Positions 1,361 through 4,527 of a stretch of DNA of 5,005 nt are shown here, in pieces; position 1 is the stretch's first letter; each line of letters opens with the position of its first letter. The notes below the pieces were generated by a model. That model saw only the letters and a list, made by a program, of their open reading frames with translations. It was not told where the DNA came from and searched no databases. The stretch lies in IMG/VR virus record IMGVR_UViG_2695420809_000013. One strand, given 5' to 3'. Source of the DNA: a virus. Lineage: Duplodnaviria; Heunggongvirae; Uroviricota; Caudoviricetes. Made by a program: the position numbers and the translations under genes.

Positions 1361-1672
1361 TTATTCGATGCGCACTCCTGGTATTTCGCCTTTTGATATT
1401 GCTAAGTCATAAATTTGCGCGGCACTATACCCATCTCGCATCCATGAATCTAAGGCGCGAACAGCCTCGCTACGCTTTTTATCTTCTCTCTCATTTTTGA
1501 TATCAACGAGGACATCAACGCAATTAAGGCAAATGTGGATTTTGTCCTTACATTCGATCATGGCGGCTTTGCCATGATTTCCGCCACACAGTGAGCATAA
1601 ATCTTCAGGGGCTGGCTGGTATTTCTGTAACGTTAGAGGGTTGAATGTTGAACAGGCCATAATCATCTCCAT
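1361..1672 (-). CDS. Hypothetical small Cys-motif protein (CxxC...CxxC, putative zinc ribbon), in the Ea8.5-equivalent position upstream of xis
   Basis: ORF of 103 aa with CSLCGG and CLNC motifs. The likely true start is the third in-frame ATG at 1660 (GGAG 6 nt upstream on the minus strand), giving 99 aa. Resemblance to lambda Ea8.5 is positional and motif-level only, not verified. Confidence 0.55.
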   Translation of the reverse strand: MEMIMACSTFNPLTLQKYQPAPEDLCSLCGGNHGKAAMIECKDKIHICLNCVDVLVDIKNEREDKKRSEAVRALDSWMRDGYSAAQIYDLAISKGEIPGVRIE

Positions 1673-1727
1673 AAAACAAAACTCGCCGTAGCGAGTTCAG
1701 ATAAAAGAAATCCCCGCGAGTGCGAGG
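1671..1727 (-). terminator. Two tandem hairpin plus U-tract elements directly upstream of the Cys-motif ORF start (terminator or attenuator-like)
   Basis: Minus-strand RNA would contain CCUCGC-ACUC-GCGGGG (plus 1712-1727, one G-U wobble) followed by AUUUCUUUUAU, then AACUCGC-UACG-GCGAGUU (plus 1680-1697) followed by UUUUGUUUUAU, which abuts the GGAG and ATG of the next ORF. Confidence 0.4.
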
Positions 1728-1856
1728 ATAGTTATTCATTGTCGATATTTACATTTATTTCGAATATCTTTACTGGGTAATCGCCAAAGTCATATGTTTT
1801 TTATTCTGTTTTATAAGCACTACCAAGTACTGCTTATTACAAATAAGAAAAGGCTG

Positions 1857-1885
1857 AAAAAATATTTAAGGCCACAACTGTGGCC
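1857..1885 (-). terminator. Candidate intrinsic terminator of the LprI-like moron gene
   Basis: Inverted repeat GGCCACA/TGTGGCC at 1870-1885, starting 11 nt after the TAA stop (1896-1898); on the minus strand it is followed by TTAAATATTTTTT (plus 1857-1869). Confidence 0.6.
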
Positions 1886-1895
1886 CTAAATTTAC

Positions 1896-2594: not shown

Positions 2595-2599
2595 ATTCA

Positions 2600-2672
2600 C
2601 TCCATAAATACAAAAGCGCATTACTATAGCACTTAACCGATCGCTTATCTCGCCCGTTCGTCATTCTTATCT
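2600..2672 (-). promoter_or_regulatory. Candidate sigma70 promoter (extended -10) for the LprI-like gene, with upstream direct repeats
   Basis: On the minus strand, TGcTATAGT (the -10 hexamer TATAGT corresponds to plus 2628-2623, with TG at 2631-2630) lies about 30 nt upstream of the ATG. The -35 is weak (GAGATA at a 17-nt spacer). A 7-bp direct repeat CTTATCT on the plus strand at 2644-2650 and 2666-2672 (AGATAAG on the minus strand) overlaps and lies upstream of the -35 region. Confidence 0.35.
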
Positions 2673-3640: not shown

Positions 3641-4147
3641 TTAAATTGCGTGAATAGCGTGACGAGGGAAGGGGAGAGTTACTGGTGCAAAGGGTATATC
3701 GTCGTCAAAATCCATCGGAGGTTCGTTGTGTTGTGCTGGTGATGATTGCTGCTGTGGCTTCTGTGATTGCCTGCTGGCTGCTTGTTGTTTGCTGTCGCCA
3801 ATGCCGCCAAGCATTTGCATCACGCCATTAATTCCGACATGAACCTCGGTTGTGTAACGGTCTTGCCCTGACTGGTCTTTCCACTTTCTGGTTCTCAGCA
3901 TTCCCTCGAAATAAATCTGATCACCTTTTTTCACATACTGCCCCACGACCTCAGCCAGTTTCCCGGATACAGCAACACGATGCCATTCAGTCAATTACTT
4001 TTGCTCGCCAGTATTTTTATCTCGCCATTGTTCTGACGTGGCTATTGTCAGGTTAGCGAACGCTGTTCCTGATGGTGAGTATCGAACTTCCGGGTCTTGT
4101 CCTACCCGACCAAGGATAATCACCTTATTTATCCCGCGAGAACTCAT
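3641..4147 (-). pseudogene. ssb: Single-stranded DNA-binding protein (SSB) gene interrupted by an in-frame TAA and carrying a 15-aa extension past the canonical DDDIPF C-terminus
   Basis: N-terminal part [50 protein letters not shown] (4147-3998) and C-terminal part [63 protein letters not shown]...[11 protein letters not shown] both align with E. coli SSB as remembered, in the same frame, separated by TAA at 3997-3995 where E. coli has Glu. The reading frame then continues past IPF as [15 protein letters not shown] before the stop at 3643-3641. The start has a GAGGTGGAG SD and overlaps the rusA stop (ATGA). Confidence 0.8.
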
Positions 4148-4527
4148 TTGCTCCACCTCTTGCCAGTTTTTATGTTGCTTATAATTGATTGAGATACACC
4201 CATGACCGGTCCCCACTCAACCAGCATTCTTTTCACCTGACTGTCGTCTTCCCACACACCCGCGTGGGTCAGGGCGTCAAACAGCGCCTTGTTATAGTTG
4301 TCCAGATCGCGGATCCGGTTATCCGGAGGAAACAACACAATCTCTACTGAAGCTGGTGCCGACGTTGGTTTCGGCAAACGACGTAACTGCTCAACTATTG
4401 CTGCGCACGCCGCGCTCTGGAATTTTCGCCCCGCCGCGCTTATCAGGCTCTTACCAGCAAACGCCCCTTTGTTGGGGTGTCGCCAGTACGTGTTCACGCT
4501 GGGCGGAAAAGGCAGAATCAGCTTCAT
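4144..4527 (-). CDS. rusA: RusA-family Holliday-junction resolvase (crossover junction endodeoxyribonuclease)
   Basis: [13 protein letters not shown] and [26 protein letters not shown] match E. coli RusA motifs ([39 protein letters not shown]) from memory, including the catalytic Asp residues. GAGAGGGG SD upstream; the ATG overlaps the stop of the upstream gene and the stop overlaps the ssb ATG. Confidence 0.8.

Follow-up and report, generated by a model that had tools for sequence, protein, structure and literature searches.

Between the gene for a secreted protein and a Cys-motif open reading frame (ORF) that precedes xis and int, a virus-derived stretch of DNA carries three hairpins that resemble transcription terminators, all oriented alike within one AT-rich gap. 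Their crowding raises the question of whether they insulate the excisionase and integrase genes from upstream transcription, end a short RNA of their own, or regulate the gene that follows. The stretch, referred to here as the window, comprises 5,005 nucleotides of the IMG/VR virus record IMGVR_UViG_2695420809_000013 (Caudoviricetes) and was analyzed computationally.

The gap and its hairpins

All substantial ORFs of the window lie on the minus strand. In transcription order, the upstream genes encode a protein with a LexA DNA-binding domain, RusA, SSB, a P22-type anti-RecBCD protein, and an unannotated ORF. An LprI-family gene (1896-2594) borders the gap, on the other side of which lie the Cys-motif ORF (1361-1660/1672), a lambda-type excisionase gene (1052-1270), and a lambda-type integrase gene (1-1074). 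This order, int-xis-ORF-moron-abc2-ssb, matches that of a lambdoid pL operon. RefSeq copies of the window DNA are found in E. coli prophages next to torS (A25) and mdtA (Z1323HEC0423). The copy in strain A25 is 100% identical over 1201-2700 and harbors kil and the N antiterminator gene further upstream. On the basis of the gene order and the A25 copy, the region is assigned to the distal end of a pL (exo-xis) operon of lambdoid type. In the genome closest to the window, the prophage is rearranged and defective, and neither N nor cI is annotated near it.

RefSeq places the start of the Cys-motif ORF at ATG 1660-1658, and the non-coding gap therefore spans 1661-1895. The initial annotation had given its size as 223 bp, which is revised here to 235 nt, while its description as non-coding and AT-rich stands. 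The G+C content is 34.5% in the gap and 26% in its core (1791-1863), compared to 48% in the whole window.

A consensus scan identifies three minus-strand terminator-like sites in the gap, at 1891-1864, 1729-1710, and 1698-1679, with stems of 8-12 pairs and loops of 4 nt. The first, ATTTAGGGCCACAGTTGTGGCCTTAAAT followed by the tail ATTTTTTCAG, has 12 pairs and a U-tract at 1863-1855, and sits past the LprI stop codon (1898-1896). The second and third are named t3 and t4 after their phage lambda counterparts. Hairpin t3 consists of ATCCTCGCACTCGCGGGGAT, then TTCTTTTATC, with its U-tract at 1709-1700, and sits past the stop codon of a gene remnant (1734-1732). Hairpin t4 consists of GAACTCGCTACGGCGAGTTT, then TGTTTTATGG, and its U-tract (1678-1672) runs into the ribosome-binding site (RBS) of the Cys-motif ORF, GGAG 1670-1667. 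As in intrinsic terminators, the sites combine a G+C-rich stem-loop of at least five pairs and a short loop with a U-rich tail directly 3′ of the stem on the transcribed strand.

Folded alone as RNA, the hairpins at 1891-1864, 1729-1710, and 1698-1679 have energies of −17.6, −12.1, and −11.9 kcal/mol, respectively, with z-scores of −5.0, −4.6, and −3.6; for each hairpin, 0 of 200 shuffles are as stable. Shuffled sequence yields 5.4 terminator-like sites per window on both strands, or approximately 0.12 per 225 nt on one strand, and the chance of at least three such sites within 225 nt of one strand is P ~3e-4. The three minus-strand hairpins with U-tracts that had been noticed in the AT-rich gap are thus confirmed by the scan, the folds, the shuffles, and the base composition, and all three are stable folds. 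The U-tracts of t3 and t4 are interrupted (UUUCUUUUAU and UUUUGUUUUAU, respectively), so each of these two hairpins is possibly leaky alone. In a hand alignment, t3 and t4 are alike at ~21/30 positions and look like diverged copies; Tandem Repeats Finder detects no repeats in t3/t4. Folding of the whole gap returns four independent hairpins with no terminator/antiterminator alternative.

Origins of the pieces

The gene that borders the gap encodes an LprI-family secreted protein (Pfam LprI, E = 2e-5; RefSeq annotation) and is not found at the corresponding position in lambda or 933W. The LprI unit has an upstream module boundary near 2745 and the other at about 1662/1698. Its assignment as a moron follows from its own terminator at 1891-1864 and its presence or absence among related phages; in addition, an extended −10-like element, TGCTATAGT, read from the sequence at 2631-2623 upstream of the GGAG and ATG of the gene, is a candidate promoter. 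Among homologous copies in a plasmid cassette, one stem pair of the 1864-1891 hairpin is U.G, U-A, or C-G, and pairing in the stem is therefore kept.

The AT-rich spacer (1791-1863, minus strand) travels with this gene, as the segment 1791-1895 constantly accompanies LprI. BLAST matches window positions 1806-1879, at 80-84% identity, to a stretch between genes of ~72-120 kb E. coli plasmids that bears no annotation there; these plasmids carry phage-type genes (e.g., Ea22-like, DUF551, and S24 peptidase). The plasmid homologue is the entire 137-nt spacer separating two co-oriented genes. The homology covers the terminator hairpin as well as an inner hairpin, AGyACUUGGUAGUGCU, so that a cassette with this inner hairpin is common to the LprI moron of lambdoid prophages and to phage-like plasmids. 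By eye, it appears to extend to ATG 1794-1792, the equivalent of the ATG of the plasmid's downstream gene, which adjoins the junction with the gene remnant. At least 80% of a 1741-1900 query is present in 108 of 5,426 complete E. coli genomes, and in some prophages the block 1662-2700 is joined to a lambda-type, not a Cys-type, downstream ORF.

Two further features of the spacer were considered and set aside. A 31-aa ORF on the plus strand (1794-1889) is not regarded as coding, since hand translation shows that, across the conserved bases, the ORF of the plasmid homologue lies in a different frame. The spacer also contains an imperfect inverted repeat, AGTACTTGGTAGTGCT, on the minus strand at 1831-1816; the palindrome AGCACT-N4-AGTGCT was rejected as a repeated operator because it occurs in single copies per locus with no nearby repeats.

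Downstream of the spacer, positions 1732-1790 (minus strand) are the dead 3′ end of a 933W-type gene, as judged from sequence comparison. They comprise the last ~19 codons and the stop codon TAA 1734-1732, and the reading frame has no in-frame start codon and meets a TAA upstream at 1803-1801. The parent is the gene that 933W holds at this position (NP_049464.1), which RefSeq names an ASCH-domain protein; a Pfam search of the 933W protein gave no confirmation of this name. Window positions 1600-1790 are 92.7% identical to 933W 2001-2191, and the 933W gene at 2133-2498 ends exactly at the equivalent of window position 1732. By hand, the remnant translates as DFGDYPVKIFEINVNIDNE, compared to HFGDKPVKVFAIKVNIGNE in 933W. 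Matches of 86-91% to 1662-1790 or to 1662-1785 are found in approximately 20 viral contigs. It is proposed that the moron came together with its terminator and the spacer that originally lay downstream of it, and that it would have displaced most of the resident gene in doing so. The unusual length of the gap for such a tightly packed region is attributed to this insertion, which left a start-less gene end and a foreign spacer.

The third piece is a 74-bp portable linker (1662-1735, minus strand) consisting of the stop-codon context, t3, t4, and the GGAG RBS. BLAST finds it at 92-100% identity in phage genomes (96-100% in lambda, 933W, 434, and P22-like phages), with breakpoints at 1662 and 1734-1741. 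Its carriers include lambda, 434, HK630, HK140, mEp phages, the Stx phages 933W and Sakai, and P22-like Salmonella phages. When IMG/VR was scanned for the sequence that separates the two hairpins, 120 loci were obtained; 97 of them are members of the family, and 94 viral contigs with full 150-nt flanks were used for flank clustering. The flanks form 19 upstream and 7 downstream clusters, which occur in 32 combinations, and the 70-nt t3-t4 cassette has a median identity to the window of 97%.

BLAST comparison with the family loci places sharp breakpoints at 1290-1298, 1361, 1662, 1734-1741, and 1785-1790. The linkers at about 1290-1361 and 1662-1735, having such breakpoints at their edges, bracket a variable ORF slot. 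These near-invariant linkers would serve as crossover points for the exchange of different genes in the slots next to xis. Some contigs hold a whole gene between t3 and t4, and at the joint the U-tract sequence of t3 is present twice. The t4 U-tract is lost in 3 of the 94 full-flank contigs, all in one downstream flank cluster, where unrelated sequence follows the stem.

The linker is also found in lambda at about 29,300-29,373, where it is 96% identical over 74 bp, separates the ea8.5 stop from lambdap35, and stands in the same order toward t5, the cII box, and xis. Its hairpins are computed at about 29,355-29,336 and 29,324-29,305. The window and lambda differ by only 2 substitutions in or beside the hairpins: the t3 stem is identical, and the t4 stem of lambda has one A-to-G change that turns an A-U pair into G-U and keeps the pairing. 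By sequence, the tandem hairpins of the window are thus already known, as the elements predicted in lambda as t3 and t4. For lambda, ARNold predicts −11.4, −9.2, and −11.2 kcal/mol for t3, t4, and t5, respectively (Bloch et al. 2014, PLoS One 9:e108233, PMC4195576, Table 4), and the lambda copies qualify as terminators under two independent programs (PMC4195576).

The scan also finds a counterpart of the predicted lambda t5, a co-oriented fourth hairpin at 1320-1301 (−15.4 kcal/mol, minus strand). None of 200 shuffles folds as well, and its z-score lies within the −3.6 to −5.0 range of the four hairpins. The hairpin, of which lambda and 933W have near-identical versions, is located just upstream of xis and of the pI cII box TTGC-N6-TTGC (1296-1283), within the second conserved linker (about 1290-1361). 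Near-identity to lambda also holds for the cII box and pI region over the aligned stretch.

Taken together, the gap is probably a non-coding patchwork of three pieces brought together by modular recombination in the pL operon of a lambda-like prophage, and its hairpins are, with good probability, ordinary Rho-independent terminators.

Candidate roles of the hairpins

The most likely role of these terminators would be to stop non-antiterminated transcription, including that of the moron, before it reaches the Cys-motif ORF, xis, and int. Unmodified RNA polymerase, arising in a lysogen from the moron promoter or from stray initiation, would be stopped first at 1864-1891. Polymerase that escapes this site would be stopped next at t3, t4, and the t5-like hairpin, such that the Cys-motif ORF, xis, and int stay silent. 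Once the prophage is induced, polymerase that starts at pL and is modified by N would pass all terminators of the gap as well as the t5-like hairpin, and the cII-dependent pI promoter would supply int independently. Termination in vivo, N read-through, and insulation are all inferred from established lambda biology; the sequences, folds, homologies, and mosaic breakpoints described above were observed directly.

Insulation of xis/int and the Cys-motif ORF, which would make these genes dependent on antitermination or an internal promoter, had been one of the roles considered in the initial annotation, and it fits the co-oriented hairpins, the upstream N gene in the sister copy, the cII box with pI, and the identity to lambda t3/t4. 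In the genome copy closest to the window, N read-through has perhaps been lost, and the role of the terminators may simply be to hold xis and int off. A regex scan for a nut site in 1661-1895 finds no boxA (CGCTCTTA-like) or boxB-like element, the sole boxA-like string being located at 2787. Intra-operon terminators are common in P22-like phages according to the genome paper of one of them, phage L, which states that their roles are not established and suggests that they reduce downstream mRNA or stop transcription in the absence of antitermination.

The hairpins could instead act mainly in ways other than termination, as stabilizers of pL mRNA 3′ ends or processing barriers, or they could have been copied along with a linker that is a recombination hot spot. 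This reading is unlikely, although several properties of the cassette are compatible with it. A median conservation of 97% between unrelated flanks is the signature of recombinational spread, breakpoints fall within the cassette itself (in the t3 U-tract and right after the t4 stem), and t4 occurs without a U-tract in the few contigs noted above. Covariation is likewise absent. The analysis of covariation that had been called for was carried out on 37 distinct t3-t4 variants, in which the stems are 97% paired and the changes are one-sided and pair-preserving (U.G/U-A/C-G and U-A/U.G). Compensatory double substitutions are found at 0 of 16 pairs across the 37 variants, which is no better than shuffles. 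Because the cassette is too conserved, covariation is uninformative on the fold, and the result neither supports nor contradicts it. The stem structure rests on energetics and near-invariance, and recent recombinational spread could also yield the latter. However, almost all variants of both hairpins retain uninterrupted G+C-rich stems followed by U-tracts, the orientation of the hairpins always agrees with transcription, and the lambda copies score as terminators. The two functions are also not exclusive, as a terminator can double as a crossover site.

Termination by t3 and t4 would also be expected if they ended an independent small RNA (sRNA) of ~90-125 nt that starts near 1790-1800 on the minus strand and acts as a trans regulator or arises as a by-product. 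Two good terminators do lie downstream of the putative start, and a weak sigma-70-like site, TTGGTA-17-TAAAAA at 1826-1798, would give a start near 1790. By an approximate sigma-70 weight matrix, this site, which had been proposed in the initial annotation, is the best on the minus strand within the gap. However, it lacks the key −7 T, ranks 11th on the strand behind sites within coding sequence, and has a −10 that reads AAGAAG in the homologous plasmid cassette. In the other element proposed near 1800-1830, TGcTTATAA, the TG as read from the sequence is one base too far from a TATAAA hexamer. A consensus scan of the minus strand of the gap finds no promoter, and the weight matrix finds none that is distinctive. 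On the plus strand, the best site is TTTACT-18-TATGTT (1769-1798); its position across the recombination joint excludes an ancestral origin.

Positions 1732-1790, the body of the putative sRNA, are a diverged gene 3′ end that is coding in 933W and is joined here to a foreign spacer, and a hypothetical 121-nt RNA adds little structure beyond both terminators (z = −2.2). A search of all Rfam families with E up to 10 returns only sub-threshold chance matches in the gap, to MicA, STnc180, AbsR28, and isrK. These score ~15-21 bits against thresholds of 41-50, or at most about half the gathering score, and are driven by the terminator stems. The 100-150-nt sRNA suggested at the outset is accordingly disfavored: it matches no Rfam family above threshold, it has no distinctive or conserved promoter, and its body is recombination debris.

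Precedent is offered by RalA and KilS in Rac, which are xis-proximal sRNAs of another cryptic prophage and which lie between xis and the recombination genes, as the putative sRNA would. In contrast to the gap, where nothing comparable is found, RalA is antisense to a neighboring gene and has a defined toxin partner. The region of Rac RalA/KilS shows no sequence match to the window gap, and the t3-t4 cassette is not found in the K-12 cryptic prophages Rac, DLP12, and e14. The EHEC anti-sRNAs are located at the pR′ moron site, not in this region, and the literature text on the Pas sRNA makes no mention of xis or excisionase.

Conservation of the AT-rich spacer and its inner hairpin in a second genomic context is a further point in favor of an sRNA. 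The spacer (~1798-1879) might accordingly be viewed as a portable regulatory cassette whose fusion to the remnant and t3/t4 possibly gave rise to a newly born sRNA. Provided that it holds a processing site or a promoter, a short orphan RNA of ~90-125 nt would be produced. Both the independent sRNA and the newly born one are considered improbable; a weak accidental transcript from the gap is possible.

Least credible, to the point of being very nearly dismissed, is a gene-specific attenuator or leader of the Cys-motif ORF that operates via alternative RNA folding: the t4 U-tract does abut the RBS of the next gene and the resemblance of t3 to t4 makes cross-pairing formally possible, but in both the minimum-energy and the centroid fold the two hairpins form independently and no antiterminator competes with them, neither a leader peptide nor a cis-regulatory match in Rfam is found, some phages place a whole gene between t3 and t4, and the same 70-nt cassette follows 19 upstream and precedes 7 unrelated downstream sequence types, which argues against a gene-specific leader and leaves the attenuator raised in the initial annotation unsupported.

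Comparison with known systems

Beyond annotation, the significance of reading the hairpins as insulating terminators is slight, given that the same tandem hairpins were already predicted as terminators in the lambda exo-xis region and that silencing of xis and int in the absence of antitermination is part of textbook lambdoid logic. The added value is modest and lies in the base-level dissection of the gap into a 74-bp linker, the dead end of a gene, and a moron terminator accompanied by the spacer inherited with it. The linker, ~97% identical across at least 19 upstream and 7 downstream contexts, provides a clean example of a mosaic crossover, and the dissection warns against calling sRNAs from terminators alone.

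The lambda exo-xis region (PMC4195576) shares with the window the order gene, t3, t4, small ORF, t5, and pI/xis. The flanking genes differ: in lambda, ea8.5 lies upstream and lambdap35 downstream, whereas the window has the remnant with the LprI moron upstream and a 933W-type Cys-motif ORF downstream. The t3-t5 sites of lambda are themselves computational predictions.

The window hairpins also resemble tL1, tL2, and tL3 in being co-oriented intrinsic terminators that precede xis and int in the leftward early operon. In the lambda pL operon, these three intra-operon terminators are overridden by N antitermination. In contrast to the lambda tL sites, the gap has no nut-like boxA/boxB, termination and read-through are predicted here, and N has apparently been lost in the closest copy.

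Lambdoid phages reportedly carry both morons and conserved gene-boundary linkers, the latter an idea that is credited to Susskind and Botstein. As in lambdoid morons, the LprI gene is followed by a terminator of its own, comes with a plausible promoter of its own, and is variably present among related phages. It differs from these morons in that its insertion left debris behind, in the form of a 3′ gene end lacking a start codon and a spacer of foreign origin. Like the boundary linkers of lambdoid phages, those of the window are short, near-identical intergenic cassettes that flank interchangeable genes.

Joints relative to the closest genomes

At position 4204/4205, the window lacks 1,999 bp that are present in its closest genomes, NZ_CP148334 and NZ_CP148378. 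The missing stretch encodes an HNH endonuclease, a Rad52-family recombinase, and kil, as well as fragments. At this joint, other sequence takes the place of the final ~11 codons in the RusA-family gene, giving a longer ORF (4144-4527).

In the neighboring ssb gene (3641-4147, minus strand), codon 51 (3995-3997) reads TAA in frame, whereas NZ_CP148334, an otherwise identical genome, has GAA (Glu) at this codon. The stop is created by a single C-to-A difference at window position 3997. In the window, ssb is thus either a nonsense pseudogene or a variant sequence.

The closest host prophage (L188; NZ_CP148334.1, 11,700-14,450) has a scrambled gene order. Beyond kil, it harbors inverted fragments (including a DnaB N-terminus), a second RusA gene, a LexA-like gene, a methyltransferase, and PerC. 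Neither N nor cI is annotated in this stretch; therefore, the prophage copy is probably defective.

The LprI moron and its surroundings

The translation-initiation region of the LprI moron (2595-2640, minus strand; GCGCTTTTGTATTTATGGAGTGAATATG) is strongly similar to the tail of the t4 terminator hairpin and the RBS linker (GCGAGTTTTGTTTTATGGAG...), with the greatest similarity being to a linker variant, ...GGAGTGAATGATG, found in other phages. On the basis of this resemblance, the moron may occupy another linker-type slot, in which an extended −10-like element, TGCTATAGT (2631-2623, minus strand), would stand in place of the 5′ half of the hairpin.

The terminator-plus-spacer cassette is common to the moron and two E. 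coli plasmids, NZ_CP062854 (L125) and NZ_CP024264 (L126), of 107 kb and 72 kb, respectively. The plasmids harbor lambdoid-type genes (Ea22-like, DUF551/EaA-like, and S24 peptidase), and one of them also carries metG and apbC. The common cassette suggests that phage-like plasmids and lambdoid prophages exchange genes.

Near the gap, the best promoter-like site, TTTACT-18-TATGTT (1769-1798), lies on the plus strand, where it ranks fourth, and spans the recombination joint at ~1790. If active, this putative promoter would give rise to antisense RNA against the 3′ end of LprI.

Linkers and the genes they accommodate

Insertions occur between the t3 (1710-1729) and t4 (1679-1698) hairpins. In four IMG/VR contigs (L045, L058, L076, and L106), a gene whose product ends in ...FEFTDAA* sits between them, ~700 nt upstream of t4, and harbors another hairpin and T-tract at its own end, inside the coding sequence. 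The product contains a GCCGPHRH motif, and our guess is that it may be tRNA-guanine-transglycosylase/DpdA-like.

A second near-invariant linker, which lambda and 933W also carry, lies at 1290-1361; it extends from the variable ORF's stop codon, takes in the t5 hairpin, and reaches the cII box of pI. This linker and the t3–t4 linker (1662-1735) flank one interchangeable ORF slot, which holds lambdap35 in lambda and the Cys-motif ORF in the window.
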